Source: Eledone cirrhosa (taxonomy: Eukaryota). From it: DNA of 64,000 nt. Positions within the stretch are counted from its first letter, which is position 1. Every line of letters begins with the position of its first letter. Shown piece by piece: positions 667-32,341 of the stretch. The position numbers and the translations under genes are program-made. The notes beneath the pieces were generated by a model, which was not told where the DNA came from, made no database searches, and worked only from the letters and a program-made list of their open reading frames with translations. The DNA lies in contig OZ024742.1 of assembly GCA_964016885.1 (NCBI GenBank), positions 82,708,001 to 82,772,000 on the forward strand, in the 5' to 3' direction.

Positions 667-752
667 GGTGAGGATTAAATAAAATCAAATTACCGATCTT
701 GTGGGCCTCTTTCTTCTATTTAACATAAATTCTTCTTTTCCCCACCTTAAAG

Positions 753-1313
753 GTGGTTTATATTGTGATGACTGTCTTCTTTCCACTAATCTTAGCCTAT
801 CAGAAATTGAAAAAAATAAAAAAACTTATTAGAACTTTCCTCAAAGATTATTATAATCTCACTATTATATTTGAAAACACCAGTAAAATAGTTAATTTCT
901 TAGATATAACTTTAGACTTATCTACGGGTATCTACCAACTTTACCATAAACCTAACAAAAATTTACATTACATACACTCACAATCCAATCACCATAGATC
1001 TATCCTTAAAAACCTAGCATATAATATCTTACTCAGAATTTCTAACCTTTCATCTAACCAAGATATATTCGATAAAAATGCGCCCTTTTATAACGAAGCT
1101 TTAGCTAGAAGCGGCCACAAAAACAAATTAGTCTATATACCTTGCACCAATAATATTTCAAACATACAACCCAATATTACCAACAAACACCAAATGAAAT
1201 GTACACACCTAAATGCCACTCACACTACACCTAAAAATACCAACCTAAAACTTAATTTCTCTACCTCTTCTCACATAAAATATAATAACTTTCAAAAAAA
1301 CCATTCATCCTAA
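753..1313 (+). pseudogene. PLE reverse transcriptase C-terminal/thumb fragment
   Basis: VNFLDITLDL, YHKPN, SNHHRSILKN motifs typical of PLE RT; frameshifted from the upstream YxDD-like motif. Confidence 0.8.
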
Positions 1314-1798
1314 TATTCCAATATACGTTAATAACATTACTAACAAAATTCCTAATAATCAGACTAAAACACCTAAATCAGTTAATCTAACTAAACCTAT
1401 ATATAATAAATTCACTAATACTAACTCTCTTAGAAAACATCCTGATACATCGTATAAATATAAAAAACAACATCGAAACCGTAATAGACGAGTTACTTGG
1501 TATAATGCTCCATTAATCTACAAATTAAAGATAATATTCCTAAAATGGTATTACTATCCTAGAGAAAAACTTCCCGCCAAACCATAAATACCATCAAATT
1601 TTAAATAGATCAACTGTCAAATTTTCCTACTACTCTACCAAAAATATACAACAAAATATACGTGCGTACAACGCATATAAATGTAAAAAAAACACGAATA
1701 TACCACCAACACATCAAACCAACCATAATACTAACATAAACCGCAACAAACCACCATCTCCTTCACATATAACAAGTCGAGTAAATTCCACACCAAAT

Positions 1799-2240
1799 TT
1801 GACTAACTCCCCTGATATAATATTCACGAATGGTTGTAACTGTAGAAACAAAAGAAATTGCCCTCTAAAGGGAAATTGTCTTATTAATAACATAGTATAT
1901 AAATGTAAAATTAGCACTAAGGACTCAACTTATTCATATATAGGAGCTACGTCTAACCAATTTAAAGTAAGATTTAATACCCACAAACATAGTTTTAAAA
2001 ATGCCGCATTAGCTAATACTACATCCTTGGCTGAAACAATTAATAATTATAGAAAAAAGAATGTAGATTACAACCTGACCTGGAGTGTGCTCAAAATGGC
2101 CACCCCTTATCAAAATAACAGATACGAGTGTAGAACTTTTTGAAATAATGAAATCTAAGGATATCCTATTAAATAAGCGACAAGTATTAATTATATCTTG
2201 CAATCATAGAATTAGAAGAACTTTCAAATATTATAAACCT
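1799..2240 (+). pseudogene. PLE Cys-rich linker plus GIY-YIG endonuclease fragment
   Basis: CxC-x5-C linker followed by VY-x(n)-YIG and R-x3-H; reading frame broken after 2143. Confidence 0.85.
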
Positions 2241-2752
2241 AATTAATATACACTTTACACTTATATTTTACATATCATTATAATTAGTTTTTGTATTTAG
2301 TTAACCTATAATTAATACTTTACTACAGTATTAGTACTTTACTACTTCATAATTAATATAAAGTTATCCCTATAAGTATACCTATCAATTAATTTAATTT
2401 CTTGTTATAGATCTAAATTCCATGTGTTTTTAATAAGATTGGTATTTTTCACTAATACCTTTACCCTAAAATCTTACTCTCCTTCATTTTTAACTTTATT
2501 CTTTAATAACATCAAATGTTCGTGTACCCTTCACCGGCTTGACCTCTTTTCATCACCAAAGTATTCTTTTCATTCAAAGTATTCTTTCCATTCAAAACAT
2601 AATTCTGCATTCTTCTACTCCTAAATTAAATTTCTACTACTACTATTCTATCAACTTGACCTCTTACTACTTTTCTATTGGTCAATTCAAAACCTGTTCC
2701 CAAACAGACCTATTATATTAAATCTTTGTTGGCTTATTTCAATAAACAAATC

Positions 2753-2888
2753 TCATTATTTCTGAAGACGGCATATATATATGAAGGTAAGTATATTTCC
2801 TCTGATAGTTTGTAATATTTTTACATAGATCTATATGATATACATACCAACACACATATATATCCTAGAAACGATCGTAAAATGATGA
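2753..2888 (+). ncRNA. Type I hammerhead ribozyme with ~99-nt extended stem II
   Basis: Stem I tcattattt/aaatgatga; CTGAAGA 2762-2768; long hairpin 2769-2867; GAAA 2868-2871; palindromic stem III CGATCG; GUA cleavage triplet ending 2879. Confidence 0.75.
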
Positions 2889-3060
2889 ATTTTTTAATAT
2901 AAGGAACTTGTTCTTTGTTTTTATTCAATGTGTTTATTAATTTATCTTGACTCTGTTTTCCTGTGATTTTCATCGAAAATTTTTGAATGCATCTCTTTCA
3001 TGATATTTGGATTACATTGAGTTCTTCATACGGTTTGGACACTACCGTATATTTTGGTCG

Positions 3061-3198
<138 letters not shown>

Positions 3199-3771
3199 AT
3201 GAATATGTATTTATGCGTATGTATATTTGCATGTGTATATGTAAGTACGTATGTATGTGTGCTTGTATGCGTGTATGTATGTTTGCATATTAGTACTTCA
3301 TGGCGTGCACTAAATTATGTTGTGTGGATGGGAGTCTGTCACGAGGACGCTTTATATGAACATTCTTCAAAGCGATACCAACTAAACAATTATAAAACTG
3401 ACAGCCGTTAATACCATAGTAAGCATGTCTACATTACAAGTTAGTAAGATTCAGGGCAAACAATCGATTAAGATCACAAGAACCAGAGCAGAGAAGCAAA
3501 TTCCTATGGAAAGCAAATATAAATTAAATAGAAATATTAAACATCAAAACATCATTGAAGCCAACACATAACGCATACCGGAGGCACATATTACATATAC
3601 TCACATATGCCTACCCTGATACACACATTGAAACACGTCCAAACGCACAATGGCACACAGAGATACGTTCGTATATATTTGTCTATGTGTATTTACGTGT
3701 ATATATATATATATATACGTATGTATGTATATGTATCTATATGTACGTATATGTATGTATATGTACGAACG

Positions 3772-3891
<120 letters not shown>

Positions 3892-4172
3892 AAAGTTCTA
3901 TTTAAATTGTTGGGATACAACAAGCAAATATTGTTTATAACTGATATAAAGCACTCCACAAATTATTGGAGTAAAAATACGATATTAACAAATGGAAAGT
4001 ATATTTTTAAAACAATATTTATTTCATTATACATATTTCAAGGACACAAAGTTAAATTATGGTGTCCTTTCATCAGACAAAATATAATATAGATCAGTTT
4101 TATAAATAAATATTGACATAAAAAATGCAACCATTACTGTTGGAAGCTCCCGGATAGTCTGTTGGAAGCTCC

Positions 4173-4215
<43 letters not shown>

Positions 4216-4437
4216 ACACGCACACAGGTATATATGTATTCATGTATATATATTTATATATATCACGATAAATTAACGGAGGCATAGGCCCACGCTATCC
4301 CTGTAAATAATATATTTGTACGTATGGATTCACCGAACATTTTATATAATGCTCGGTGTGTTTGTCCACAAACATCCCATATTAAGCCGTAGTGTCTAGC
4401 AACCATCGTTACTCGTTTGTTCAACACTGACAAAGGA

Positions 4438-4480
4438 ATGCTGTACCAGTTTCAAGCTTATTAGCTATCGTCAGCAACGT
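4438..4480 (-). ncRNA. Minimal type I hammerhead ribozyme (unit 1)
   Basis: Minus strand: acgttg CTGACGA t-agc taataa gct-t GAAA ctgg TA cagcat. Confidence 0.7.
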
Positions 4481-4866
4481 ATACCTTCCTGCCAGATGAT
4501 TGAACCTCTGAAAGTATATACTTTCCTTATGCATACTAACGGCTGAGTAGCCCAATTTGCATATCGAGTGGTTTAATTGGCCGGGTGCACCGAAAACGAT
4601 AAACGGAAAAAATGAAACGAAATTTCATTTCCCACTCTTAGTACGGCTGTTACTTAAATATACGTATGTATACGTACATACATATATGTATACAGACGTA
4701 CAGTAGTATGTATATATATATACATACATGCACACATATATATATATGTACGTATGGGTTCACCGAACATTTATTATAATGCTCGGTGTGTTTGTAAACA
4801 AACATCCCGTATTAAGCCGTAGTGTCTAGCAACATCGTTGCTCGTTTGTTCAACACTGACAAAGGA

Positions 4867-4909
4867 ACACTGTACTAGTTTCAAGCTTATTAGCTATCGT
4901 CAGCAACGT
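4867..4909 (-). ncRNA. Minimal type I hammerhead ribozyme (unit 2)
   Basis: Minus strand: acgttg CTGACGA t-agc taataa gct-t GAAA ctag TA cagtgt; palindromic stem III loop CUAG; stem I extendable by aagg/cctt. Confidence 0.8.
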
Positions 4910-5666
4910 ATACCTTCCTGCCAGATGATTGAACGTCTGAAAGTATATACTTTCCTTATGCATACTAACGGCTGAGTAGCCCAATTTGCATGTCGAGTGG
5001 TTTAATTGGCCGGGTGCACCGAAAACGATAAACGCAAAAAATGAAACGAAATTTCATTTCCCCCTCTTAGTACGACTGTTACTTAAATATAAGTATGTAT
5101 ACGTACATACATATATGTATACAGACGTATAGTAGTATGTATATATATATATATATATATATATACATACATGCATACATATATATATCTACGTATGGAT
5201 TCACCGAACAATTATTATATTAGGCAATTATAGTACAAACTACGTAATTAGGCGTAGGGCCGTTTCGTCATCTGGAGGTCACCTCCCTGTTAAGGAAAGA
5301 TAGAACATTGCGTGTTAGCTCTTTCATTTGCAAGTAGCAAGTGATGGTAGTACTGTACCCTTATATTACGTCACATCAAAGTGGAGGTAAGCCAAGTCAA
5401 ACCATTATAGGGGACCACGTTGGCAAATAGAATTCGCATTAAAAAAACATGATTATTGTCATAAGCAAAGAGAAAACTGGTACGGCAAATAATGAGAAGT
5501 AAATCGAATTTGGTAAAAAAGTAAGAAAGATCAACTTATTGTTTAAATGGAGGAGAGATCACCTGGAGATAACATAATTGGGAGTAGAAGATAGTCGAAT
5601 AGAACAGACATAGGAGAATTATGTTCGTGCACACACACACACACACACACAGAGGCAGACACACAG

Positions 5667-5698
<32 letters not shown>

Positions 5699-5705
5699 AC
5701 ATATA

Positions 5706-5748
<43 letters not shown>

Positions 5749-5751
<3 letters not shown>

Positions 5752-6276
5752 TAAATCTACCAAAAGTTTACGGTAGTGCCCAATCCGTATAAAGAATTCA
5801 ATGTAATCCGGATATCATGAAAAGAGAAGATGCATTCAAAAACTACTTTCGGTGAAAAATAAACGGAAAACAGAGTCAAGATAAATTAATAAAATAATGA
5901 ATAAACAAAGAAACAGTGCCTTATATTAAAAAAATTTCATCATTTTACGATCGTTTCTAGGATATATATGTGTTAGAGTTGGTATGCATATTCTATAGAT
6001 CTATGTACAATATTTATACAAACTATCAGAGGGAATATACATACCTACACATATATATGCTGTCTTCAGAAATAATGATATTTGTTTATTGAAAAAAACA
6101 AAGATTCAATACAATAGGTCTGTTTGGGAACAGGTTTTGAATTGACCAATAGAGAGATAGTGAGGGTCAAGATAGTAATATAGTAGTAGAAGAACCTTAA
6201 ATTATGGGTAGAAGAAGGTAGATTTCAGTTTTGGATGGAAGAGAATATTATGAATGAAGGATGATTTTAGGGAAGA
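5749..6276 (-). mobile_element. PLE 3' terminal region (pLTR-like), same family as 685-3062
   Basis: Reverse complement aligns with ~2560-3062 (ggtcaattcaaaacctgttcccaaacagacc...gattacattga...ttttggtagattt); abuts (TA)n. Confidence 0.85.
5937..6078 (-). ncRNA. Type I hammerhead with ~105-nt stem II (copy 2)
   Basis: Minus strand: tcattattt CTGAAGA cagc-atatatatgtgt...acacatatatat-ccta GAAA CGATCG TA aaatgatga. Confidence 0.75.
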
Positions 6277-6383
6277 AATAGGGGGGAGACTTCGGAGGGA
6301 CATTTGTGTAGAAAGCCCAGTAAAAGGCCACAGTGACCTTGACCACCAAGGCAAGTGCCCTCTCCCAGTTTTCCACCTTTAAT

Positions 6384-9300
6384 TTACAGATACGTACTCA
6401 GAGTAGGCCCATTCACTCGGGCCATTCTTGCTCCTCTCACCCATCTTTCAACAAAATGCTGGGAAGAGAGCACTTCCCTCTCTACTCTGATTTCCCTTTT
6501 CAAATGAAATTTGAAAAAGTCAATCAGGGCATCAACGAAGAGGTAAGTGCTCGTCTTCAGCCCTTTCAAACGTGTCCACCATACTATCTCTTTCGCAATG
6601 GCCACCAGACAGATAAACACTGCCTGTCCTTCCCGGCTAAAGGAAGAGGGCGGGGCAATCCTCACGATGGTCTCAGATGATAGCCGGATCCGTCCTACAC
6701 ACGACAGCAGGTGTTCGACATAAATCCACAAGTCAGCAAATTTCGGACACTGGACGAGTGCGTGCAGGACGGTTTCGTCGCCCTGTGCGCATCTCAAACA
6801 TGCCCGGCTGACGGCACCTCCATGCCTGTAGAGTTTATCCCGAACTGGCAAGGCTCCTCGGTAGCACTGCCAGGCCAGAGATTTCTGGAAGTTGTCCATA
6901 GGTCCCGGCCCGAAAGTTCTTCCGAAGAGATTGGCTAGTTGATTTTCGTCGACGCCTAGAGTTTCCCCAAGTACGTCGTCGCTCTTCCCCTCCTCTAATC
7001 CTCTATAGAACGCCGAGGTGGAGTTTCCACCGATCACATTGCCCGATTGGTCAAGGGCTGTGAGCGCCTGAAGACATTCCAGTGTCCAGGCGCTCCCTCT
7101 CGGTGTTCGCTTGACCCAGGACTGCAGCTCCGTCAATGAAACAAGCTGGGGAAATACGTGTCTAGCAAACGGCAACCACACCTGATCACCGTCGAGGAAG
7201 AGGTGGAGATATCGTAGCCCGAGCGCGTGTATGCGCATCATCAGCCACGGCATGCCCAGCCCTCCACGTAGCGGGTGTTGACAGCTGATGGACCGCCTGA
7301 CCATCGGAGCGCGTCCCTTCCACAAAAAGCGAAAGAGCAATGGCTCCAGCACAGTCAGCCATGGCTTAGGACAAGGTACGACAGTCAGGCGGTAGCAGAT
7401 GACAGACGCGATGTACGCGTTAGCCACCTCCGCTCGACCTTTCCGGAATAGCTTCCTCTCCGCCGATTTCAGGGTTAGAGAAGCCACCCTGCTCGTCGCC
7501 TCGTCCCAGTTTTTGTCCGTCTGGAGGTCCGGACCGAACCAGACCCCTAGCAATTTAACCGGTCTGTCCGTCCAGCGTCCGACGACGCTGTTGGACGGCA
7601 TGGACATGCCTCTCCAGGTGCCGAGCTGCAGGCCCACTGACTTTTCCTGGTTGATCATTGCTCCTGTCACCGCTTCGTATTGTCTTAGTGTAGTGCCGAT
7701 CGCCCCGATGTGTTTCGCGTTCGACACCACTACGGTGACATCGTCCGCATATGCTGACACGGATCTTCTGCATCCTAGTTCGCGCCAGACGCCCCTCAAC
7801 GTCTCCAGTTTGTGCAGTAATGGCTCGAGAGTCAATACGTACAAGAGGGACGAGAGGGGACATCCTTTGCTGACCGAGCACATGATATTGAACGGTTCCG
7901 AAAGGTGACCGTTCACTCTCCCCACAGAGCAGATGTCGCTGTGCATGGCAGCGATCAAGCCTCTGAAGATGGGCCCAAAGCCAGCCACCCTCAGAACTGC
8001 CGCTAGGTAACGATGGTCGACCCTATCGAAAGCTTTCGACTGATCTAAATTGATCAAGGACCCACACGTGCCAGATTCCCTAGCTACCCTCTCTCCGATG
8101 TATCGCATGAGGTGGAGGTTGTCCTGGATGGATCTGTCGGGAATGGCGCATATCTGCGCCTCTCCACACCAGGCCACCAACGACAAGCGCCAACCTCTTT
8201 GCTAGCACCTTGGCCAAAATCTTGAACACTCTGTTTAGCAGAGTTATGGGCCTAAAATTATCTATGTTATCCCCCTTGTTCGGATCCTTTCTCAGCAGTG
8301 CCACCGCTCCTCGGCTCACAGACCTGGGAATTCTCCCATTCTGTTGCCAGTTGCAGTAGCCGTCCGCCAAGAGGCCTCCGAACAAGTCTAGCATCTGTAC
8401 GTAAAGTTCATAGGGCAGACCATCCAAACCAGGCGATTTACCCCTTGTGCAGCCAGTCATTGCCTCCCGTACTTCAGCGGCTGTTATCAGCTTTTCGCAA
8501 CACTCGGCCACAGTGGCCGAGATCCGCGGCAGTCCGTTGAGGTAGACACTAAAGTCCATCCCTCGACCCGGCCCACCGCTGCCGCCTAACAGCTGTGCGA
8601 GGTGTTGCTGAAAAGCTTCACACATTTGCCCGGATCGAGTAGCATGCGCCCGTCGTGGTCCACCAAAGACTGGATCGTGGCTTTGTTGCCACGACGCGCC
8701 TCCGCCACTCGGACCCATTGAACGGCTTTCGTCCCCTCGTGTCTGAGAGCACGCACCCTAGCTCTGAAAACGCAGCCTTCGTGCTTTGCATTAAAGAATT
8801 GGTCAAGGGCCAATTTCGCCGCAAGTACGTCGGTCGCGATGCCTTTGCTAAGCGCCTCGTCTAATTTTCTAACTACTTCTCCCTCTGCTCTATTTTTCTC
8901 TATTGCTAAAGCCTTACTAAACCTAATGGATTCTATTCTAATCGCTCTTTTCAGAGCAAACCACCACTTGTTGTTGATGATGGCCTCCGTCAACGCCCGC
9001 TTAACTAGTTCGCTAGTCCGGTCTCTGTAGGCCTTGCGCGTTGGTAAGGACGCGTTTAGCTTCCAGGAGCCGGGTCTTCATCTATGAAGTTTATCTAAGT
9101 CAAGCACACAGATCACAAATTTGTGGTCCGTGAGGCTGACTATCTTGAATTGTGGACAGCCTATGCTAGAGCTATCTATTTCCCTACAAAACACTCTATC
9201 TAGATATGATCTGGATGACCCTGTGCGATTTGTCCAAGTCCACATTGGCACATTCGAGATATCCAATCGGTACCTGTCAGACAGTTCAAATTGCCTGAGC

Positions 9301-9802
9301 AGATTGGTGAGACTCTTGCACACTCCACTCCTATCCGCTAATCCCACACAGTCCCAGCGTGCATCTAAGATCCAGTTCCAGTCGCCCACTAACACTAAAG
9401 AGCTGGACGTTCCAAGGAAGGTCTCCAGACGCCGGAAGAAATCAGGCCGCCATGATATGTCGGGGCATAGACGGCCACTAGCCTGAAAGCTTGCCCGTCT
9501 CCGCTGGTCACGTCCAGCACCACCAACTTACCCTCAGGGTCCAGGAAGATGGCCCGTATCGCGAGATCCAAACCTCTCCGAAAAAGCACAGCAACTCCTT
9601 CCCCCGATCCCGGACGGCTGGGAGATGCGTACACATCGTAGCCGCCGAAGATCGGTGCGGAGGCCCGTGATTCGGAGATTCTGGTCTCGCTGATGGCCAC
9701 AACATCTATGTTTAGTGACCTGAGGTCGTTGAGCAGGTGACCCTGCTTCCATGACGACCCCAAGCCACGCGCATTTATGCTGCCTATTCTGAGTGAGGTC
9801 AT
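6384..9802 (-). pseudogene. Tx1 ORF2 (APE endonuclease + RT + C-terminal Cys/His motif), disrupted
   Basis: Spread over ORFs 9395-9802, 9078-9395, 8586-8993, 8080-8718, 6384-8186; stop at 9078-9080 plus frameshifts. Confidence 0.92.
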
Positions 9803-11965
9803 GTTGAAAATAGAGTGGAAAAGATGCGAAAGACCACTTACCGTACTTTTCGTAGAGGAGGGATGGTTTTTCCATCCCTTTTCACTTGATCGTCTGGTGA
9901 AGGGACCGTTGAATCGTCCCTTCGGCTGGTCGTCGGCTCTTCTATGAGTATGTCCGAATATACTCTTCGATTGAGAGTCCCTCCTAGATCTCTGAAATCA
10001 CCAACTGCGTTGGGGAATTTCGTTTTAATGTTTGTGTATTGTTTCTGTGCTATTTTTAGCAGTCTTATGTTAGTTGGCGTTTTGATTGGTGCTGGTATTA
10101 TGTAGTCGTGTTGTGAAATGTCTGTGTGTTCAATTATGTAAGTCATTAGTTTCTTGTTGTGTGTATTTATTGCCGTGCATTTGTTTTTCTGGGGGTGGGG
10201 TGTGGTTCTGCTATTTTCTTGTCGTTGTTGCTGGGTGTGTGTGTTTTGTTGTTGTGTTTGCTATGTAGGTGCTTGTGGTGGTGGTGTTGAAGGTGTTGTT
10301 GTTGTTGGCGGTGGGGTTGTCGCCGGAGGTGATGGTGGTGATTGTGTGGGTGGTGATGGTGTTGGTGGTGTTGCTGCTGAGAGCCTCTTGGCAGTAGCCT
10401 TTACCCTTTTTTCATTTCTTTCCTTCCTTTTCGAAAGCGACGATGCGCTGCTTCTGCGTTTGTGCGTTCTTACGACCTTTTGCCATCCCTCTCCCACCTC
10501 ACGCTCCATGTCTGATTCTGTGAGGTCGGGGAGGGGTACCAGCTCCACTCTTTCACTTGTTGTTTTTGGTGCTGTTTGCACTAGAGTCTCTGTTGCAGCT
10601 GCATTTGGTATTGCTTCCACTGCTGCTGCTGTTCTTGATTTCCGTGGCGTGGGTATGGGTGCCACGGACCTATCGTTCCTGGTTGCCGCTTGTCCTGTTG
10701 CTGGTAGCCGTGGAGCCGGTTTCGGAAGGAGGGTTTTTTTTCCTTTTCAGGGTTTTCTCATTGAAGAAGGCCCTGAGGTGAGTCTTCGATCCATAGCGAA
10801 AGCATTTCGGGCGTTTGCCCTCAACACTTATGGGCAGTTGTGTGCCGTTATCGAAGTCTATCACATCCGGGATAGCTTCGATGCACTCCTGCTTAGTTTG
10901 GATTAACATCTCAATGGAGATGCCGACCCAATCTTCTCTTACTTTTTTCTGTACTTGCAGTACAGTTGTTTTGTCCTCGATTCCGACGAGGACAAACGCG
11001 GCCAGCCAAGAAGGGGCCATCCCGGAGGGGACGTGGGTCAGTTTGACCCTCACAATTTTTTGCCCGCTGTAGGAGCGCACCAACACCATTTCCTCGCTCC
11101 TTAGGGTCACTAATGATTGAGCCTTTGCCTCCTGGGGTGTGGCAAAAAGCACGTCTACGGTGGCATATTTCTTGCCTCGGGTGATGTGCGTTTTCCGCTG
11201 CCACACATATCCTAAGGCTTTTTGTATTTGAGTCTCTGTGGCTCTTTCAGCCCTGCGGGATTTTGTGCTTACCGTACGGTACGTGACCGTACAGTGCTGT
11301 CGGGTTTCAAAAAACATTTTGGCTGGCTTGCAGATTGCTCGGTGTCCGGTTTTAGTCACCATCTTCTTCGTTTCCTCTAATTCCTCATTTGTTATGAGGA
11401 TGGTTTCCAGATTCTTTGCGATACCTGCAAACGAGATTGGTTTTTCTTTGCTGCTGTTGTTGTTGCTGTTGTTGTTGTCGTCATAGCTGCTGTTACTTTT
11501 GTTGTTGCTGCAGGTACTACGACTACTGCCGCCGCCGCTGATGCTGTGGTTGTTGTTGTTGTTGCAGCTGCTGCTGTTGTTGTTGCTGTTGCTGCTTATG
11601 CTGTTGTTGTTTATGCTGCTGTTGTTGCTGTTGCGGCTGCTACTGTTCTTTTCCTCGTCACTGTTGCTGCTGCTGCTGTTATTACGGCTGCTACTGCTAT
11701 TATTCGTGACGTCAGACTAATGAAATGGGTTTTCGTATTTCCCGCACACCTTTTTCGTCGTTGTCGTCGTCGTCGTGGAGAAATCTTGCACGCTTTGCAC
11801 GTGATTTTTCTTTTCTGGCGTCGCTTGCCAAAGAGAAGGGAGGGAGAGAGACACATTTAGAGAAGGGAGGGAGAGAGACAATCTTCTCTCTGCTGTAGTG
11901 ACGATTGAGGAAGAAGAAGACGGAATGAGTGGGAGTGACCTATGAAAATTCTTTTTCGTAGCCAT
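9800..11965 (-). pseudogene. Tx1 ORF1 (low-complexity N-terminus, CCHC-type knuckle, Pro/Thr-rich C-terminus), disrupted
   Basis: MATKKNF start; ISFAGIAK motif; KCFRYGSKTHLRAF (degenerate version of CFRCGSKTHLRAFC in copy 2). Confidence 0.8.
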
Positions 11966-12179
11966 GTTTTTTTTTTGTTTAAAATAAATATTGGGCACAA
12001 CCCCCCAATAAGCGGTTATTTAACCCGAAGGGCCAAATAACGGGCAGAAAGACCTCTCTCTCGAGGAGGAGGGTGTTTTTGTCTACAATTTGGTTAAAGT
12101 TTTAAACAATTTACAATTGTTATAGCGGTCAAAATTTACAATACCTTACAGAGCCGAGCCTCCGTCAACCATAGCATTC

Positions 12180-12236
<57 letters not shown>
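12180..12236. repeat. (TAA)n/(TTA)n tract between tandem Tx1 copies
   Basis: Pure trinucleotide tract; 3' tail of copy 2 and 5' flank of copy 1. Confidence 0.97.
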
Positions 12237-12237
<1 letters not shown>

Positions 12238-15200
12238 CTTTCTTTATTAACCACAAGGGTCTACATAAAGTAGACATTAAGGACAGTACAGGACAATACA
12301 GGGCGGTACAAATGGGCATTTCTGCGTGTAAAAAACAAGAAACAGAGGATGTAATAATAGAACAATGCAAAAATTCCCCAATAGAGGGGAGACTTCCGAG
12401 GGACATTCGTGAATAAAGCCCATTAAAAAGCCACAGTTACCCTGACCACCAGGGCAAGTGACCTCTACCAGTTTTCCACCTCTAATTTACAGACACATAC
12501 TCAGAGTAGACCCATTCACTCGGGCCATTCTTGACTATCTCATCCATCTTTCAACAAAATGCTGGGAAGAGAGCACTTCCCTTTCTACCCTGATTTTCCT
12601 TTTCAAATGAAATTTGAAAAAGTTAATCAGGGCATCACCGAAGAGGTAAGTGCTCGTCTTCAGCCCTTTCAAACTTGTCCACCATACTATCTCTTTCGCC
12701 ATGGCCACCAGAAAGATAAAAACTGCCTGCCCTCCGGGCTAATGTAGAGGGCGGGGCAATCCTCACGATGGACTCAGCTGATAGCTGGATCCTTCCTACA
12801 CGCGACAGAAGGTGTTCGACATAAACCCACAAGTCAGCAATGCTCGGACACTGGACGAGTGCGTGCAGGACGGTTTCGTCGCCCTGCGCGCATCTCGGAG
12901 ATGCCCGGCTGACGGAACCTCCATGGATGTAGAGTTTATCCCGAACTGGCAAAGCTCCTCGGTAGCACTGCCAGGCCAGAGATTTCTGGAAGTTGTCCAT
13001 AGGCCCCGGCCCGAAAGTTCTTCCGAAGAGAGTGGCTAGTTGATTTTCGTCGACGCCTAGAGTTTCCGCAAGTACGCCGTCGCTCTTCCCCTCCACTAAT
13101 CCTCTATAGAACGCCAAGGTGGATTTTCCACCGATCACATTGCCCGATTGGTCGAGGTCTGTGAGCGCCTGAAGACATTCCAGTCTCCAAGCGCTCCCTC
13201 TCGGTCTTCGCTTGACCCAGGACTGCAGGTCCGTCAAGGAAACGAGCTGGGGAAAGTCGCGCCTAGCAAAGGTAGACCACACCTGATCACCGTCGAGGAA
13301 GAGGTGGAGATGTCGTAGCCTGAGCACGTGTCTGCGCATCATCAGCCACGGCATGTCCAACCCGCCACGTAGCGGGTGTGGACAGCACATGGACCGCCTG
13401 ATGATCGGAGCACGTCCCTTCCACAAAAATCGAAAGAGCAAACGCTCCAGCGCAGTCAGGAGGGGTTTACGATAAGGTACGACGGTCAGGCGGTAGCAGA
13501 TGACGGACACGATGTACGCGTTAGCCACCTCCGCTCGGCCTTTCAGGGATAGCTTCCTCTCCGCCCATTTCTGGGTGAGAAAAGCCACCCTGCTCTTCAT
13601 CTCGTCCCAGTTTTAGTCCGTCTGGAAGTCTGGACCTAACCAGACCCCTAGCAATGTAACCAGTCCGTACATCCAGCGCCCCACGACGCTGTTGAACGGC
13701 ATGGATCTGTCTGTCCGGGTGCCGAGCTGCACGCCCACTGACTTTTTCTGGTTGATTATTTCACCTGTCACCGCTTTGTAGTTTCTTAGTGTAGTGCCGA
13801 TCGCCTTGATGTGTTTGGCGTTCGACACCAATACGGTGACAGCGTCCACATACGCTGACACGGATCATCCGCATCCTAGTTCGCGCCGGACGCCCCTCAA
13901 CGTCTCCAGTTTGTGCAGTAATGGCTCGAGAGTCAATACGTACAAGAGGGACGAGAGGGGACATCCTTGGCGGACCGAGAGCATGATGTTGAACGGTTCC
14001 GAAAGGTGACCGTTCACTCTCACCAGAGAGCAGATGTCGCTGTGCATGGCAGCGATCCAGCCTCTGAAGACGGGCTCGAAGCCAGCCGCCTTCAGGACTG
14101 CCGCTAGGTAACGATGGTCGACCCTATCGAAAGCTTTCGACTGATCTAAATTGATCAAGGACCCACCCGTGCCAGTTTCCCTAGCTACCCTCTCTACGAT
14201 GTATCGCATGAGTTGGAGGTTGTCGTGGATGGATCAGTCGGGAATGGCGCATGGTATACACTAATGTCAATCCCTCGACCCTGCCCACCGGTGCCCCCGA
14301 ACCAGCTGAGCGAAGTGTCGTTGAAAAGCTTCACACATTTGCCCGGGATCGAGTAGCATGTGTCCGCTGATGGCTACTAGATCTATGTTTAGTGACCTGA
14401 GGTCGTTGAGCAGGTGGCCCTGCTTCCATGACGACCCCAAGCCACACGCATTTATGCTGCCTATTCTGAGTGAGGTCATGTTGAAATGGAGTGGAAAAGA
14501 TGTGAAAGACCACTTACCTAACTTCTCGTAGAGCAAGGATGGTTTCTCCATCCCTTTTCACTTGATCGTCTAGTGAAGGGACCGTTGGATCGACCCTTCG
14601 GCTGGTCGTCGGCTCTTCTGTGAGTATATCGAATATACTCTCCGGTTGAGTGTCCCTCCTAGGTCTCTGAAATCACCAACTGCGTTGGGGAATTTCGTTT
14701 TAATGTGTGTGTATTGCTTCTGTGCTATTCTTACCAGTCTTATGTTCCTTGGTGTTTTGATTGGTGCTGGTATTATGAAGTCGTGCTGAGAAATGTCTGT
14801 GTGTTCAATTATGTAAGTCATTAGTTTCTTGTTGTGTGTATTTAATGCTGTGCATTTCTTTTTCTGGGGTGGTGTGTGGTTCTGCTGTTTTCTTGTCGTT
14901 GTTGCAGGGTGTGTGTGTTTTGTTGTTGTGTTTGCGATGTTGGTGCTTGTGGTGGTGGTATTGAAGGTGATGTTGTTTGCGGTGGGGTTGCTGCCGGTGG
15001 TGATGGTGGTGCTAGTGTGGGTGGTGATGCTGCTGTAAGTCTCTTTGCAGTAGCCTTTACCCTTTTTTCATTTCTTTCCTCCCTTTTCGAAGGCGACGAT
15101 GCGCTGCTTCTGCGTTTGTGCATCTTGCGACCTTTTGCCATCCCTCTCCCACCTCACACTCCATATCTGATTCTGTGGGGTCGGGGAGGAGTACCCGATC

Positions 15201-16772: not shown

Positions 16773-19700
16773 GATATAGAAATTGATCAGATCAAGCTAT
16801 TAGCACAAAGTCAGCGAAGATGAAACATGTGTCAGTGAAAACGAGGTAAATTGTAACACTTCGAATCCCAGAGTTGGGGCGGAATCACTGAGAACAGAAC
16901 AAATTAAAGAAAGGGTCGAAAAAGTGGAGGGAGTGCATGCTCAAGATAAAACTCAAAATGAAAACAATGAGATCGTAAATGATAAAGAAATGAATGAGAA
17001 TGAACTTGCCAACTTGAAGGATGAAATTATGATCGAATGGATGAAAATGAAAGAATCTGACATGGGGGAACGAGACACTCTCCCTAAGTTTCAGAACTCC
17101 AAACAGAACCAAAACATAATACACAAGACAAACAGAATTCTCAAAAACATTATCATCACAAACAAACTAAAGATTACTGATTTAAATCATCTCTATTATG
17201 TATCGGCTAAAGTCACTACTCACTTATGTCGAGTTAAAATGAAAAAAATAAAGGAATTCTCACAAGAAATCTACTTGGCAATAGAACATCAATAGAACAT
17301 CAATCGCCAAATAAACCTTCTCCGATCTGACATAGAAATTTTAACAAAGTACAAAGTAGGTGAACATGTTAAACAAACTAAACTTAGAAAATTGAAAAGA
17401 AAATACAGTATAAAATCAACAATTGACATAGACATACTGATAGAAATAACCAAGCAAAAAGTGTCGGCCAAAGCTACTCGTATAAGGCGCTTTGAAAAAT
17501 GATCTACATTCTATAAGGACAAAAATATGATAAAAAAAAAAAAAAACTTCTACAGAAAAATTGGCAAGTCAACAATAACTGCTAAATTAATACCACCCAA
17601 GGAGGAAGTGCAAGAATTCTGGGAAAAGTGCAAGAATTGGATTAAAAAGTTCATAACATACATGCCCCATGGATAGATAGACAAATGAAAGATACAGCTC
17701 ACCTTGAGGAACAAATATGGGAAAATATAACAGTTGAACAGTTGCGTTTGGCTCTTAGAAAAAACCAGCAAATGGAAATCCCCTGGAAAAGAAAAAGTAC
17801 CAAATTTTTGGATAAATGTCTTCACAGAGTCTCATGAGCTGTTAGCCCAACTTTACAATGAAATAGTTAAGGAGCCAGAAAAGATACCATCATGGCTAGT
17901 TAACGGCATTACACTCCTGCTTCCGAAGAATGATGAGACAAACAATCCCCAAAATTACAGACCGATATCTTGCTTGATCACAATGTATAAAATTTTAACA
18001 TCAGTCCTAACTGAATATACATATGACCACCTGATAACAAATGATCTATTTCCCAATGAGTAGAAAGGGTGTAAACGAGGCTCATATGGCTGTAAGGATC
18101 AGCTTTTGGTTAACAAAATGATACTGGAAGGTTGTCATAATAGACACACGAATCTATCAATTGCTTGGATAGATTATTAAAAAGCATACGATAGTTTGCC
18201 ACACAGTTGCATTGAAAAGTGTATAGAGATTTTCAAAATATCTCCCGTTGTCAGGAGGTTCCTCTCTTTCAGTATGAAGACATGGCAAACGAGACTCCTT
18301 TGAATAGTGAAAAAAAAATCACTGGAAGCTGGAGAAGTTAATATTAATTGTGGAATTTTTCAGGGTGACTTTTTATCACCGCTTTTATTCTGCATCGCAG
18401 TTATACCATTCAGTAAAATGCACAATGAAAGAAAACATGGATATAGAGTCTATGACAAAACCCTTAATCACTTGTTCTACATGGATGACCTGAAAATATT
18501 TGCAAAAAATGATGAACAATTGGAAGGTCTATTATCCACTGTGGAGCAGTTTAGTTATGACATTAAAATGGAGTTTGGACTAGATAATTGCGTTCATGGA
18601 AAGCTGCTGAAAAGTTCAGACATTAATCTTGATCGGGGGAATGTGATAAGAGAATTTGCTCAATAGGAAACTTACAAATATCTAGGTGTTTGTGAAGGAG
18701 ACGGAATCAAGCATTCGACAATGAGGGAAAGGATAAGGAAGGAATGTTACCGAAGCGTAAGAGCAATCTTAAGAACGGAATTGAATGCAAGGAATAGGAT
18801 CGATGCCATAAACACGCTTGCCATACCAGTAGTAACCTACAGTTACAATGTCATCAACTGGTCAAGCACAGAGATCCGTAGGCTCGATACAAAAATCCGA
18901 AAATTCTTAACCATGCACAGAATGCATCACCCTAAGGCAGACATAGATAGAATATATCACCCTAGGAAAGAAGGAGGACGTGGGTTAATCCAGTTAGACA
19001 TTGCGTTGAAAACTGCAACAATTGGATTATCCACATATCTAAGAGAATCACATGATTGGATGATCAAACTCGTTTTGAAACACGAAAGCACCAAAAGATC
19101 ATATTCCATTACAAAAGATGCACAAAGATACAGTAATGGACTACAAATTTCAGAAGTCCCATTTACTGCTGAAATGGAAAACACAGAAAAAGCAAAGCAG
19201 GAAAAAGTAACTGCAAAGAAAGAACTGCTACAGAAACTGGCTAAGAAATGGCAAGAAAAGCCTCTGTATGGAAAATACCCAGAGCGAGCTAACAATCCTG
19301 ATGTTGACAAAACTTTAACCCATCAGTGGTTGGCATCCTCTGGACTGAAATCGGAGACTGAAGGACTGATTATATCCGCACAAGATCAGTGTCTGCCAAC
19401 AAAAAATTACCAAGCCAACATAATAAAAAATGGGTGCAGCCCATTATGCCGTGTATGCAAAAAACAACCAGAGACCATTGACCATATAATTTCAATGTGC
19501 AGTCCTATAGCTCCAACCGAATACCTAAACAGGCATGACAGAGCTGCACAATACATACATTGGATAATGTGTAAGCATTTTGACCTGCCCCATCAAAAGA
19601 ATTGGTGGGAGCATCAACCACCTCCCATACTTGAAAAAGATCACATCTCAATCTTGTGGAACTTTAGCATCCAAACAGACCGAAAAATAGATGCAAATAG

Positions 19701-20153
19701 ACCTGATATAATATTGAAGGACTTTCAAAGGAGGGTATGCCTGCTAATTGATATGTCTGTTCCAATAGACAAGAATGTATCTATAAAAACATTTGAAAAA
19801 TTGAGCAAGTATAAGGACCTGGAGATAGAAATTAGAAAAATGTGGAAATTGAGAACTAAAACAATACCAGTGGTTGTAGGCGCTCTGGGAATGATACCTA
19901 AGGGGTCTAACGACTACTTATCGCAAATCCCAGGAAACCCGCGTATAGGAGAAATACAAAAGATAGTACTAATGGGAACTGCCCATATACTAAGGAAGAT
20001 CCTGTCAATATAAGTACATCACAAGTCTAAACACTAAGGATGCATGTGTGAATATGTGTGTTCTTTCTTGAACATGGCGGACCTTGTTGTCTCTTGAGGT
20101 CACTGGTTGTGACTTGGTGATAACTCGTATAAACATAAAGCAAGATAAATGCA
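16773..20153 (+). mobile_element. R4/Dong-clade RLE non-LTR retrotransposon, family B, degraded copy
   Basis: WKSPG, NYRPI, GIFQGD.LSPLLF, HLFYMDD, CRVC..ETIDHIIS.C, RHD, RPDI..D..LIDMSVP..K..KY; (TAA)n tail 20154-20186. Confidence 0.92.
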
Positions 20154-20183
<30 letters not shown>

Positions 20184-20187
<4 letters not shown>

Positions 20188-21050
20188 CACGAGGTGACGG
20201 AGGTCATGAAATCGCTCCCGTAAGTTTTGAATTTTTAACATATTTAAATCATTTGTGAAATAACAACTCTTAGTACAAATGCTACGTAAAGCACCCGGCT
20301 TGAGCCCAAAAAAATTCGAACCCAAAATATATTGTTATAAGGCTCAAATATTCAAATATTCAACTTTGTATTGTACACTGTATATCCAAAAAAGAAAATG
20401 GCTATAAATGGAAGAAGACCCCCCCCCCTCCTCTCCTCTGTCTACACTATATAGGACAGCCAAACTCACCAACACCAGAAACTAGATACACCACCCACCC
20501 CATCATCTGTGTACACTAAACACAACAGCCAGATAACGGCATTTTCACCTCCACCACCACCGCTCACTACGGCCATCATTACCACCACTATCCCATCACC
20601 GCCGCCACCACCCCTTCACTCCTTCACTGCTGCCACCGCTACAGCACCATCACTACAGTAATACGGTCACATCACCGCCACCACTGCCTCGGTATCGACA
20701 CCACCACCACCACTGTCTCAGTATCGCTACCGTCGCCAGTCTCCCACTTCTCCCTGCTGGCTGCTACTTCCACATTATAGAATTCCTACTACTAACAAAG
20801 AGGAAGGCATCAAAATATATAGCTAGACTCAAAAGAAAAAAGAAAAAACAAACAACAAAACCAAAGCAGCACAGCCAGAACAGCAAAAACGAGAAAAACA
20901 AACAGAGGAAAACAAAAACAAAAAAAGAAACCCCAAAAACGTAAAGAAATAAGAATGAAGAGAGAAGCAGGCGGACGGACAGAGAAGAGGGGGAAAAACT
21001 AAAACTTAAAAAACAAAAACTAAGTCAGACATTCGAACACTACATTACAA
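20184..21050 (+). mobile_element. Probable 5' end (UTR + low-complexity ORF1-like start) of a Tx1-related element
   Basis: aatgcacgaggtgacggagg..gctcccgtaagttttgaatttt resembles the Tx1 5' end aatgctatggttgacggagg.ctcggctctgtaaggtattttaaatttt; ATGGCTA at 20398, a similar distance from the start; CCA-rich coding-like tract follows. Confidence 0.45.
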
Positions 21051-21119
21051 TGAAACTTATGCTTATTCATTTTTGGGGCCCTTTCTGCCTGTGTGTTTGT
21101 TTGTTTATGTGTGTTCGTA

Positions 21120-24100
21120 TACAGCGTGGTGATAATGCCACACAAGGGCCAAGTGGGATGGCGGATCCACAGATGGCTATGTAACCATACATTCGCCAAT
21201 CCTCTATAAGAGTGTTTAAATATCGAACATAAACAGTTCGAATAACGGTGAAATGGAGACTAGAACGTCATGTGACAGACTCTCACCCAACAGGTGCCCC
21301 CTGGCTCAGCAGCAGGAACCTGACTGTCAACCAAATACTGCTGATGTTGGAGGAAGAAGAAGAAGGAAAGGGGCCAGAATAACTGGACGAAAGAATTGAA
21401 TAGAACTGTTATGCAATGCTACCTGAAAAGTAACCCCAAGGAGAGGGGCTACATGAGACGGATGCATAACATCTGGAACGAGATTGGTTTATTTAAATTA
21501 GATGAACAAAAATCGGCCGGGCAGGCTCGGGTAATAAGAACTAATGGGTGGATAAGCGAGCTGGAACTGGAGGAACTGAGCAGAGAGAATGGCTTGGAGG
21601 TGGCGGGAGTAGTATGCCAGACAAGCGAGCCAGTGGGAAATGAAGGTGAAGAGGTCCTGAGAACGGAGGAACCACCCGAAGCAGACAATGATCTGAATAC
21701 TGAGATAAATAATACCTGGAACAGAGATACGGCCACTGAGGAGATAAATGCTGACGGGCTAGGACAAGATTTGGTTGACATCCTAAATTTAGTGGTAGAT
21801 GAATTGAACAATGATAGTGGGAGACCTATGAACCTAAGATTTGTAGACAGGAAAAAGTTAAAAGAAACAACAGCTAAGGTAAACAGAGTCATCCCATACC
21901 TTGAGGCGAGGAGCCTTCACCAGTGCAACAATATCCTCAAAGCAACAGCAAATACGGTGAGGAAACTACTTGGTATAAAAGCGAGAGGAATCAACTGACA
22001 TGAAAGAGCAGAGCCGTGGTGGAAGAGGCGACTGAGTGGGCAAATCGGGGAAATGAGAAATGACATAGGAAAGCTTGAGTCACTACTGAATGGGACACTA
22101 AAAAACATAGGCACTAAAAATAGACTGGAAATAAAATACAAAACTAGGAGTAAAAAGCTAAGTATTATCATAGAGGAATTGAAGCAACGCATTGTAGCAA
22201 AGAGTGCAAAAATCAGGCGATACGAGAACAGAGTCAGTCAGTATAAACAGAACCGCATGTTCGACAACAACCAGAAGATGCTGTTTGGACAGCTTGAGGG
22301 GAAAGAAAGAGGCAACGACTTGATCCCTCTGGCGGAACAAACTAAAACATTCTGGAGAGGAATATGGGAGCAGGATGTTAGACATAATGCCCAGGCAGGG
22401 TGGATTGAGACAGTACAGAGGGAGATCGGTGAGCAGGCACAACAACAAACTGATTTGAGTATCACAGTTGAAACTCTTAAGGGGCAGGCCAAAAAACTAA
22501 CCAACTGGAAATCACCAGGCCCAGATGGTGTGCAGGGGTATTGGATTAAACATTTAACATCCCTCCACCCGAAGCTGACGGCCATGTTCAATGACTGCTT
22601 GGTGTCGGGTGAGGTGCCAGAGTGGTTGACAAAAGGTACCACAGTTCTGATAATGAAAGACCGAATCAAGGGTAATGATGTTACCAACTATAGACCTATC
22701 ACATGTCTGTCCGTAATGTGGAAACTGTTGACGAGCATTGTGTCTGAGGAAATCTACCATCACCTCCACACAAACAACTTGTTACCGGACGAACAGAAAG
22801 GATGCCGAAAGAAGTCACGTGGTACAAAGGACCAGTTACTTATTGATAAGATGGTAATGGGGAATTGCAGGAGGAGACACACTGATCTTGCCATGGGATG
22901 GATAGACTACAGAAAGGCATTTGACATGGTGCCTCATTCTTGGATCACCAAAAGCCTGGAGATCTTCAGGGTGGCAGATAACATCAGACAGTTGCTGGGC
23001 AGGAGTATGGGGTCCTGGGAGACAGAGTTGACATCAACTGGAGTATCCTTGGGAAGCGTGAAGATCAAGAGAGGTATCTTCCAGGGAGATAGCCTGTCCC
23101 CTCTGTTGTTTGTCCTTGCCCTAATGCCCTTGACCATTATGCTGCGAAAAGTGAGAGCAGGATACAAGTTGGGAAGGGGAGAGCTTACCATCAATCACCT
23201 CCTCTTCATGGACGATCTTAAGCTCTTCGGGAAAAGTGAGAAGGAGTTGGATGTGCTTGTTGACACTGTACGTATTTTCAGCAGTGATATATGTATGCAG
23301 TTTGGTATTGGTAAATGTGGAGTCATTGTGATAAGGAGGGGTAGGTTGAGCAGAAGTAGCGGGATCCAGATACCAACAGGTGAGATGATAAAGGAAATTG
23401 ACTCTGAGGAAGGATACAAGTATTTGGGCGTTCTGGAGGCTGATGGCATAAAGAACAAAAAAATGAAGGAATTGTTAAGAACTGAATACATTCGGAGAGT
23501 AAGGAACGTATTGAAGTCACATCTGAACAGCAGAAATGCCATAAGCGCAGTAAATTCCCGAGCTGTGTCTATTATTAGGTACAGTGCGGGAATTCTGAGA
23601 TGGAATGTTGCTGAACAAAAAGAAATGGATAGGAAGACTAGGAAGCTATTGACTATCTACAACATGTTCCACAAGAGGAGTGATGTCGATAGACTCTACC
23701 TAAGGAGATCTGAGGGTGGAAGAGGTCTTATCAGCATAGAGGACTGTGTTCAGATGGAGAAAAACAACCTATACAAATACGTGACCTATAGTAAGGAGCC
23801 AATGCTCAAAACTGTACTGAAGGAGGGGACAGTAGGCCAGGGGATGTCCAAGGAGGAAATAACATCAAGGAGGAAGAGCAGCCTTAAGGGAAATTCCCTT
23901 CATAGTACCTTCTTTGAGAAAACTGAATTTAGAGATCCACAGACATGGAACTGGTTGAGAAGAGGAGACCTCAAAAAGGCTACAGAAGGAATGATAATGG
24001 CTGCGCAGGAGCAGGCCCTCAAAACGAAGTGGTTGAAGCACCATATTTACAAGGAGGAGGCTAGCCCACTGTGCAGGATCTGTGGAGAGAGAGAGGAGAC

Positions 24101-24720
24101 TGTGGCTCACATTGTGTCCGAGTGTAAACACCTAGCCCAGACCCACTATAAGGGCTGGAGACACGATGTGATGGGCAGGGTGATCCACTGGCACCTGTGC
24201 AAAGTAAACAATTTACCACATTCTGAGAAATGGTATGAGCATAGGCCGGAGGCGGTGATGGAGAACAATCAGGTGAAGGTGCTGTGGGATTTTAGGATAC
24301 AGACGGACAAAAAACTGGAACACAATAGACCTGACCTGGCGGTTGTGGACAAAGAAAAAAGATCGTGTCTGATTGTGGATGTGGCCTGCCCGTTCGACAC
24401 GAGAGTGCAAGAGAAGGAGAGGGAGAAAATTAACCGATACCATGACCTAAAGTGGGAGGTGAAAAGGATTTGGAACTGCCATGAAGTCAAAGTGATCCCG
24501 ATTCTCATAGGCGCACTGGGGACTATCTCCAAAAGTTTCCAGGGATGGTTAAAGAAAATCGGCCCCTTCACGCTTTTTGGAACGCTTCAAAAGGCATGCT
24601 TGCTTGGAACAGCAAGAACCCTCCGATACGTCCTGAATATCTGAGGCTGCAGGTAGTGACTTGATATTCATTCCAACGGACTTTCCAGTTAACCAACATC
24701 AATGACTGAGATTCAAGGAA
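21120..24720 (+). mobile_element. R4/Dong-clade RLE element, family C, near full-length
   Basis: N-terminal WTKELNRTVMQCY..P.ERGY..RM..IW domain; RT FMDD; CRICGEREETVAHIVSEC; RHD; RPDL..VD...IVDVACP; (TAA)n tail; 5' boundary approximate. Confidence 0.92.
21253..24644 (+). pseudogene. Family C polyprotein (N-terminal domain + RT + CCHC + RLE) with few lesions
   Basis: ORFs 21396-21998 and 22053-24644 are in the same frame, split by a TGA at 21996-21998; probable frameshift near 21380 from ATG 21253. Confidence 0.85.
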
Positions 24721-24727
24721 TAACAAC

Positions 24728-24775
<48 letters not shown>

Positions 24776-24778
<3 letters not shown>

Positions 24779-26544: not shown

Positions 26545-26555
26545 ATAACAATAAC

Positions 26556-26600
<45 letters not shown>

Positions 26601-26601
<1 letters not shown>

Positions 26602-29612: not shown

Positions 29613-29632
29613 ATAATAATAATAATAAAAAT

Positions 29633-31908: not shown

Positions 31909-31933
31909 TAATAATAATAATAATAATAATAAT

Positions 31934-32330
31934 GCTTTTTGTGCAGATTAACATATTAATTATATGTGACATTTGTGATAAAATGTCGCTTGGAGCGAAA
32001 AATATTGAAGATGCCAGCAAAGACTAAGCTTAAACTTAAGCATATCAATGCAAAACAGTAAAATATAAAATAATAGAAATAGTAAAAGAATACCAGATAT
32101 ATTAAACGTATTGTTTGTGAACACAATAAAATGTGAAAGTTCATGAAAGATAGATAGAAGACATTAAACTGCTATATTATTATTCGTGTTATCTTGCCTG
32201 AAAATATATATATGCATACGAATCCTCAGAAATTGAACAGCTTACATTATACGTATATACTTACTTACTTTATATATACACACAGATACATGCTAATTTT
32301 GTCTGGATGCACAAAGATATATATATATAT
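31934..32330 (+). repeat. ~400-bp non-coding segment duplicated in inverted orientation at ~51690-52078
   Basis: Shared sequence on opposite strands; the incidental ORFs MNFHILLCSQTIRLI and MPENIYMHTNPQKLNSL occur at both places. Confidence 0.9.
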
Positions 32331-32341
32331 ATATATATATA

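Follow-up and report, generated by a model that had tools for sequence, protein, structure and literature searches.

Hammerhead ribozymes in the terminal repeats of Penelope-like elements (PLEs) are already known, as are their dimer design and unpaired stem II edges. Those in the pseudo-LTRs (pLTRs) of Hydra-clade elements are of type I with a short, near-palindromic stem III, and often have an extra unpaired base flanking stem II on either side (Craig et al. 2021, PMC8557442). The hammerheads of minimal PLEs and of Penelope from Drosophila virilis have the same dimer design with a palindromic stem III; their helix II is enlarged, and stem II carries an additional base on its 5′ side (Cervera and de la Pena 2014, PMC4209133). 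Type I dimer-type hammerheads also occur in non-LTR retrozymes, in which a U–U mismatch has been described at the base of helix II (PMC7229834; bioRxiv 10.64898/2026.07.22.740005). The stems II tabulated for Hydra elements comprise 3–7 bp with loops of 3–10 nt, the longest insert in the table being one of about 53 nt in PLE-X1_sMoe, a spike-moss element marked non-canonical, and in the passages on Naiads 'half cores' 35–50 nt apart are noted, there not as folded arms (PMC8557442). The 'large' helix II of minimal PLEs measures 6–8 bp and has a conserved G10.1–C11.1 pair (PMC4209133).

As to transcription, Drosophila Penelope uses a TATA-less internal promoter with an initiator and the DPE RGACGTGY, situated inside the pLTR and upstream of the ribozyme, and its intron lies 46 nt past the start (Schostak et al. 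2008, PMC2377424); the ribozyme overlaps this leader intron, which ends at helix I, outside stem II (PMC4209133). In the L1Tc element of Trypanosoma cruzi, a single 5′ stretch (Pr77/L1TcRz) is both internal promoter and ribozyme, the latter being HDV-like and cutting at +1, and the promoter stays on the RNA (PMC3383444). What hammerheads do in PLEs is posed as a question in PMC8557442.

The family described here shares the type I, dimer-type design and the stem II edge features of the PLE hammerheads above, and has the (TA)n target and the C-terminal nuclease with CxCX5C of Hydra-clade PLEs. It differs in its stem II, which measures 99–116 nt and forms four helices with about 35 bp and a C–A edge; in its putative promoter, which we place inside stem II, so that one stretch would again combine internal promoter and ribozyme as in L1Tc; and in its predicted cut about 125 nt after the putative start, which, unlike that of L1TcRz, would remove the promoter. 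It is an autonomous PLE with an intact ORF, whereas two other families of the same genome, G and L163 (see below), share the tandem, ORF-less layout of retrozymes. In the mostly open-access literature covered, PLEs are described neither with a stem II of about 100 nt nor with a start site within their hammerhead, and the passages on retrozymes likewise contain no stem II of that length. We conclude that the arm is a real, selected and new structural variant of a known ribozyme class. The original prediction that length-limited descriptors would miss it holds, the core search of Craig et al. having used a spacer of 7–17 nt (PMC8557442).

Three hammerhead motifs and the element that carries them

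The window, that is, the whole 64-kb stretch of DNA analysed, contains three hammerhead-type motifs with a long stem II insert, and a box search for the 3′ boxes gave no others. All three lie where they had been predicted, with the 9-bp stem I and inserts of 99, 105 and 99 nt. The features are as follows.

686–2246, plus strand: copy 1, ORF of a Hydra-clade PLE, 5′-truncated and frameshifted, with the RT YRDD region, thumb, CxCX5C linker and C-terminal GIY-YIG nuclease
2247–3066, plus strand: copy 1, 3′ UTR/pseudo-LTR of subfamily A, followed by (TA)n
2753–2761, plus strand: copy 1, stem I 5′ strand, TCATTATTT, containing an initiator-like TCA
A2755, plus strand: copy 1, putative RNA 5′ end at the A of TCA, 7 nt before C3
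2762–2768, plus strand: copy 1, catalytic box CUGANGA, here CTGAAGA
2769–2867, plus strand: copy 1, stem II arm, 99 nt
2787–2831, plus strand: copy 1, sequence-conserved block of the arm, +33 to +77 of the putative transcript, ending at TACATAGATC
2868–2871, plus strand: copy 1, GAAA box
2871–2878, plus strand: copy 1, stem III palindrome ACGATCGT, 8 nt, dimer-forming in folding predictions
A2879, plus strand: copy 1, H17, preceded by T2878, with CGATCG between GAAA and T2878; predicted cut after 2879
2880–2888, plus strand: copy 1, stem I 3′ strand, AAATGATGA, 9 bp with the 5′ strand including one U–G
2946–3066, plus strand: copy 1, optional tail of about 120 nt; copies stop near 2945 or near 3066
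5698–6258, minus strand: copy 2, pLTR fragment of subfamily B, hammerhead at 5937–6078 with an arm of 105 nt
45310–46620, plus strand: copy 3, nuclease end and pLTR of subfamily C, hammerhead at 46306–46441 with an arm of 99 nt

The core (C3 U4 G5 A6 N7 G8 A9 / G12 A13 A14 A15.1 / U16.1 H17) is present in copies 1–3, and the layout is that of type I, with stem I open and stems II and III closed. Copy 1 carries two private changes, both weakening the arm, and copy 2 is bounded by a LINE at about 6276. In copy 3 a private C15.2-to-A change breaks the palindrome, and the active fold is calculated to cost 14.7 kcal/mol; for these reasons its hammerhead is probably dead. Rfam listed no hammerhead anywhere in the window when gathering scores were applied, and none in 2500–6300 even with E ≤ 1; it is also blind to two short-arm hammerheads of other families lying in that interval. 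These, at 4076 and 4903 on the minus strand and thus between copies 1 and 2, have inserts of 30 and 14 nt, respectively, and palindromic stems III. The window further contains a divergent, broken Hydra-like PLE (37132–38640, plus strand; about 34–39% identity), downstream of which the descriptor found no hammerhead, and nested LINEs with RT and zf-RVT at 6276–14253 (minus strand), 17200–36400 and 54324–64000 (both plus strand), in one family of which an ORF lying upstream weakly matches the methyl-CpG-binding domain (E about 0.004, short of the cut-off).

ORF, pLTRs, core and palindrome together agree with the proposal that the hammerhead is of type I, terminal in a PLE and equipped with a palindromic stem III; as judged from these sequence features, all three motifs belong to type I and lie in the terminal repeat of a Hydra-clade PLE. 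Full-length copies, such as that at locus L061, have the motif in each pLTR and on the coding strand. An intact ORF of 813 aa in locus L247 encodes YRDD and VY...YIG, as well as RWR, DKT, CNCRNKTNC (CxCX5C), CRLC (CxxC) and CNH (CxH), with no CCHH, the RT preceding a C-terminal GIY-YIG nuclease in a single ORF. Hydra-clade elements are defined by an RWK-like motif, DKT, CxCX5C, CxxC and CxH around conserved E and N, and no CCHH (PMC8557442). Because the L247 motifs, the (TA)n targets, the inverted partners and the optional tail match this definition, we assign the family to the Hydra clade, an assignment based on motifs and 112 homologues. The Naiad clade is ruled out by the C-terminal position of the nuclease, and a Pfam search of the element ORF gave no useful match. 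The elements have pLTRs and occur as tandem and inverted copies; their optional tail, at about 120 nt, compares with the usual 30–40 nt, and the unit, at 4.0 kb (L061) to 6.2 kb (L247), exceeds the 3 kb below which such elements generally remain, because the UTRs are long. In B-type UTRs (L061, 2870–2905 and 6860–6905), an upstream degenerate duplicate of the ribozyme 5′ half forms a small hairpin of its own.

Five subfamilies can be distinguished (A, B, C, D/D2 and E). In the 3.0-Gb genome, first-look searches returned 3,218 candidates for the repeat and 34,791 for the RT piece, and a 50-mer of subfamily D is matched exactly 3,186 times. Extrapolation from the nine copies present in 800 kb, sampled as evenly spaced stretches, suggests about 30,000 family copies genome-wide, with a wide error. 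Copies of D2 are 99–100% identical, and the long arm therefore belongs to a recently active element.

Fold, conservation and predicted catalysis of the stem II arm

The stem II inserts, 99–116 nt across the five subfamilies and at least 96 nt in 190 of 191 anchored copies, have a common layout, which in copy 1 runs from the C–A edge through 2 bp, a C–C mismatch, helix IIa (11 bp), an internal loop, helix IIb (12 bp) and distal helices to the apical loop. The inserts of copies 1, 2 and 3 each fold into one long interrupted hairpin, with z = −3.0, −5.3 and −4.2, respectively (200 dinucleotide shuffles each, none as stable as the native sequence), the corresponding values for the whole motif being −1.8, −4.4 and −4.0. 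Over the folded arms z ranges from −3 to −8, the arm of D being the most stable at −41 kcal/mol. Apical loop–tail pairing, a kink-turn and a SECIS fold, assessed by eye, fail across subfamilies.

Compensatory changes in the arm, noted between the window copies at the outset, were followed in an alignment of 97 copies of subfamilies A–D (23 of 120 were dropped for non-homologous flanks, and 29 E copies were handled apart). The changes are real and are subfamily-level rather than private: arm pair 7–93 is A–U in 65 copies and G–C in 29, and basal pair 2–98 is A–U in 72, G–C in 15 and G–U in 7. Defining a shared variant as one common to at least five copies, and counting variant types, not tree events, we find that pairing in the arm survives six of seven shared variants but 16 of 54 private variants (p = 0.007), in line with the proposed compensatory changes. 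Private mutation rates are alike across regions. The core, too, is better conserved than its flanks, as anticipated: shared-variant columns number 0 of 17 in core plus palindrome and 25 of 100 in the flanks (p = 0.02), and the 11 core columns show no shared variant, only N7 and H17 varying. In the 9-bp stem I both shared variants keep pairing, and in helix IIb all three lie on the 3′ strand. Comparison of E with the other subfamilies extends this pattern, five of the seven helix IIa pairs being changed on both sides, from AU-rich to GC-rich, and all still paired, with the C–C mismatch below the helix retained. These data show that the arm fold is under selection, and that fold and core sequence were kept in the lineages that transposed.

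Conservation of sequence, as opposed to pairing, is confined to the 5′ and distal part of the arm. Between A and the 29 E copies, a 45-nt block from GTATGT to TACATAGATC is 0.92 identical (42 of 45 columns), against 0.98 for the core, 0.67 for the flanks, 0.58 for the basal 5′ arm and 0.50 for the 3′ arm. Between D2 and E the block stands at 0.74, a value lowered by a 10-nt duplication, and the flanks at 0.54–0.62. The block starts with a donor-like site, GTATGT in most copies and GTAAGT in copy 1. Pairing alone does not explain the asymmetry between block and 3′ arm, and the block is a candidate for promoter/leader or splice signals.

With respect to catalysis, all subfamilies have C opposite A at 10.1–11.1, in place of G10.1–C11.1 or another pair. 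Unpaired stem II edges such as U–U occur in Hydra-clade motifs (PMC8557442), and U–U at this edge is reported to be tolerated (PMC3088659); the C–A edge thus lowers the expected rate and does not exclude membership of the class. No contact between loops I and II was evident by eye, and with both features taken together cleavage may be slow or absent. In folding calculations the intramolecular A15.1–U16.1 pair has a probability below 0.1, and a competing monomer fold pairs UUUCUG with AGAAA, from which poor monomer activity is predicted. The palindrome ACGATCGT shows no shared variant and forms a calculated duplex of −10 kcal/mol, suited to pairing between RNAs; for an A copy the double hammerhead is the optimal dimer fold, and for window copies 1 and 2 it lies at most 2 kcal/mol off the optimum. 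With an RNA beginning at −7, stem I would be only 7 bp long, and it did not form when dimers of D, D2 and E were folded under constraint. Low in vitro activity has been reported for PLE hammerheads (PMC4209133), and in vitro the RT of an Anolis PLE, which begins in the tail region, can do without ribozyme cleavage (PMC11167929).

Long arms are not confined to this family. A descriptor admitting inserts of up to 200 nt found 62 motifs in the 800 kb of evenly spaced stretches and none in each of three shuffles; the inserts form a continuum of 12–116 nt, plus a doubtful one of 156 nt, and 31 of the 62 are at least 46 nt long, 10 of these coming from one tandem array. Ribozyme censuses with short loop limits could therefore overlook roughly every second hammerhead in a genome of this kind. 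Family F (L276–L300), a second Hydra-type PLE with about 30% protein identity, has an arm of 88–92 nt, and family G (L301–L325), a young, ORF-less unit of about 998 nt that is often tandem and 98–99% identical, has a branched stem II of 94–97 nt and the palindrome ACAATTGT. Since the arms of F and G have no evident similarity to that of the present family, lengthening has likely occurred in parallel in several families. A retrozyme-like array at L163 (G000:C3:255000001-255010000, minus strand, 4212–9766) consists of tandem units of about 556 nt, ten of which have a hammerhead with a 51-nt arm. In related elements from other hosts (76 metagenome loci, many of which end too soon to show a downstream motif), inserts measure 12–29 nt in 26 motifs downstream of the ORF and 11–25 nt upstream, and a relaxed look at the 20 loci with room downstream gave no long folded arm.

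Copy 5′ ends at stem I and the proposed start site

Copies were picked by their 3′ part alone. Among 30 such D copies, 18 have a 5′ end between −14 and +2 relative to C3 (15 by automatic call and three on reading of the junction; 11 of 23 loci), as do 12 of 38 A/B copies from 36 consecutive loci, a numerator that leaves out five SINE insertions, with the mode at −7 in either set. In the control, a single family with a 30-nt arm, the count is 2 of 39 (Fisher p about 1e-5 on copies, pairs entering twice). Gaps between head-to-head copies show the same boundary. In D, where a pair with both ends at −7 should give 198 nt, 14 of 32 measure 186–229 nt, one is 367 nt and 17 are 4.4–11.3 kb, with none between 367 and 4368 nt; five of ten A gaps fall at 148–171 nt (170 expected) and four of five E gaps at 156–185 nt (184 expected), against 1 of 22 near the equivalent position in the control family. 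In family F (92-nt arm), short pairs imply ends spread from +24 to −29 (6 of 14 pairs), with no sharp point, and a second cluster of gaps is seen at 994–1248 nt (5 of 14).

At 12 junctions unexplained by the partner copy, G replaces the native C at −8 in five (p = 0.04, a small signal) and the native C is kept in four. The junctions of L433 and L443 contain short reiterated copies of the element 5′ end, resembling telomerase-like slippage by the RT. An extra G and a re-copied end are the expected trace of non-LTR RT run-off at a capped end. Counted from −7, subfamily E has AGACG at +28 to +32, the position of a DPE (consensus RGWYV), a match that A–D do not have there, and a donor-like GT is found at +32 to +34 in every subfamily.

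Part of the −7 excess in A/B was an artefact of a SINE that inserts there with target duplication, and such cases were excluded. The SINE is very abundant and tRNA-derived, with an ATTAT tail (42 tail matches in the 800 kb); seven cases plus two more were found at this one base of stem I, with 10–18-nt target duplications (L064, L072, L076, L057, L470, L474, L483, L485 and L494). A conserved start-to-cut distance of 125–140 nt across families was considered and dropped, only 3 of 39 control ends lying near −90. None of 53 listed boundaries, from loci mostly chosen for the whole motif, lies within 12 nt of the cut, where an end would have hinted at cleavage in vivo.

These observations are accommodated by a model to which we give about an even chance of being correct, and which the sequence data suggest: in this Hydra-clade PLE, whose type I hammerhead has a conserved 99–116-nt stem II, the RNA would start in stem I and the arm would carry an internal promoter/leader. 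Pol II would probably start at the A of TCA, 7 nt before C3. An RT primed at the tail of the 5′ pLTR would run off the RNA 5′ end; run-off at −7 would account for the many short copies and for head-to-head pairs joined at stem I. A retroposon starting at −7 would need a promoter downstream of its start, so that, about as likely as not, a promoter/leader at +15 to +113 came to lie in loop II, which of all sites in a hammerhead should best accommodate an insert. The 5′ and distal half of the arm would be held in sequence by downstream promoter elements and possibly by a splice donor at +32 to +34, and its 3′ half would evolve mainly as a pairing strand, reuniting CUGANGA and GAAA. Monomers are predicted to be mostly inactive, owing to a 2-bp stem III and the competing fold that pairs the core, and two RNAs could pair through ACGAUCGU as a double hammerhead, with predicted cuts after GUA/GUU. 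As copies run through the cut site, their template would be uncut RNA.

Several findings speak against this model. The DPE match is confined to E, the G signal is small, the ends in F are spread, and a 7-bp stem I failed to form in the D, D2 and E dimers. In the two full-length copies examined, the 5′ pLTRs reach at least 0.37 kb (L061) and 2.55 kb (L248) upstream of the putative start, and longer templates must therefore also exist. The 5′ boundaries of two D2 insertions, L246 and L248, coincide (query positions 710 and 711) about 2.55 kb before the hammerhead and possibly mark another defined end of the RNA. In addition, clustering is sharpest in D, whose arm is the most stable, as would be predicted if the RT stalls there.

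Alternative readings and what the family offers

Such stalling is part of the alternative that survives best, which we consider somewhat unlikely: loop II lengthened neutrally into the arm while PLE UTRs swelled generally in this host, the fold was kept only so that the ribozyme halves meet, and the RT drops off at the refolding hairpin. The distance from stop codon to ribozyme is 0.5–3.3 kb in this genome and 71–331 nt in the relatives from other hosts, the D2 UTR is built of degenerate tandem repeats, and both the 12–116-nt continuum of inserts and the dissimilarity of arms between families fit this alternative, as does the coincidence in D of stable arm and strong 5′ clustering. Neutral growth leaves unexplained why the block is 92% conserved and its pairing partner 50%, and why the mode stays at −7 across arm stabilities, with a sharp upstream edge, an extra G and, in E, a DPE.

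A more far-reaching version of the start-site model, which we regard as unlikely, holds that the transcript starts inside the hammerhead and that promoter and splice donor are folded into stem II, in parallel in several families, the hairpin masking the donor; with the same low expectation, the ribozyme could cut off the capped leader, and a single RNA module would decide whether the transcript becomes a message, a template for transposition or is destroyed. If true, this would provide a function for PLE hammerheads and a mechanism of intron retention.

An intron reading by itself, compatible with the start-site model, appears doubtful to us. It posits a spliceosomal intron in the arm whose donor is masked by helix IIb, so that unspliced RNA survives for transposition, with the donor GTATGT at +32 to +34 and as acceptor either TACATAG (42–54 nt) or a YAG overlapping G12 (82–98 nt). 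The conserved block begins at GT and ends 3 nt past TAG, with TGAT about 23 nt before AG; the shared variants of helix IIb avoid its 5′ strand; a host gene has a GTATGT donor-like site; and the Drosophila Penelope intron overlaps its hammerhead (PMC4209133). The near-universal retention of inserts of at least 96 nt in the anchored copies also fits an intron that survives unspliced. The shortest host introns, as estimated from exon matches, are 97 and 124 nt among 45 in dynein genes and 89 and 93 nt among myosin gaps, and because host introns are longer an intron of 42–54 nt is unlikely. One of 82–98 nt would have a weak pyrimidine tract, would destroy G12 in E and mismatches the conservation pattern, and the other long-arm families have, by eye, no clear GT–AG pair. 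Joints recorded for contigs of unrecorded type, from three runs of one sample, include no skip corresponding to either candidate intron, an outcome that carries no weight as to splicing.

That the distal arm is instead a protein-binding or docking module for the telomerase-like RT, or a dsRNA, small-RNA or editing substrate, as first suggested, is very unlikely: a sequence-specific ligand would explain the conserved block, the distal internal loop sequence is conserved in all subfamilies and the apical helix shows an A–U to U–G swap, but the helices are short and interrupted in A–C and E, the unrelated long-arm families with related RTs do not visibly share the module, the Anolis RT starts in the tail region, with cleavage dispensable in vitro (PMC11167929), and the suggestion of an editing substrate finds no support in the copies, A>G changes affecting 7 of 2325 A sites of the paired arm compared with 10 of 2973 for the flanks.

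Some elements reported with only 'half cores' may, in the light of the arm described here, carry long folded arms as well. The family has natural compensatory variants in its five subfamilies, one of them young, with an intact ORF and copies 99–100% identical, as well as a candidate start resolved to the base and a conserved 45-nt block open to mutation; it thereby gives a handle on what hammerheads do in PLEs and on how PLEs keep their promoters and introns through an RNA stage.
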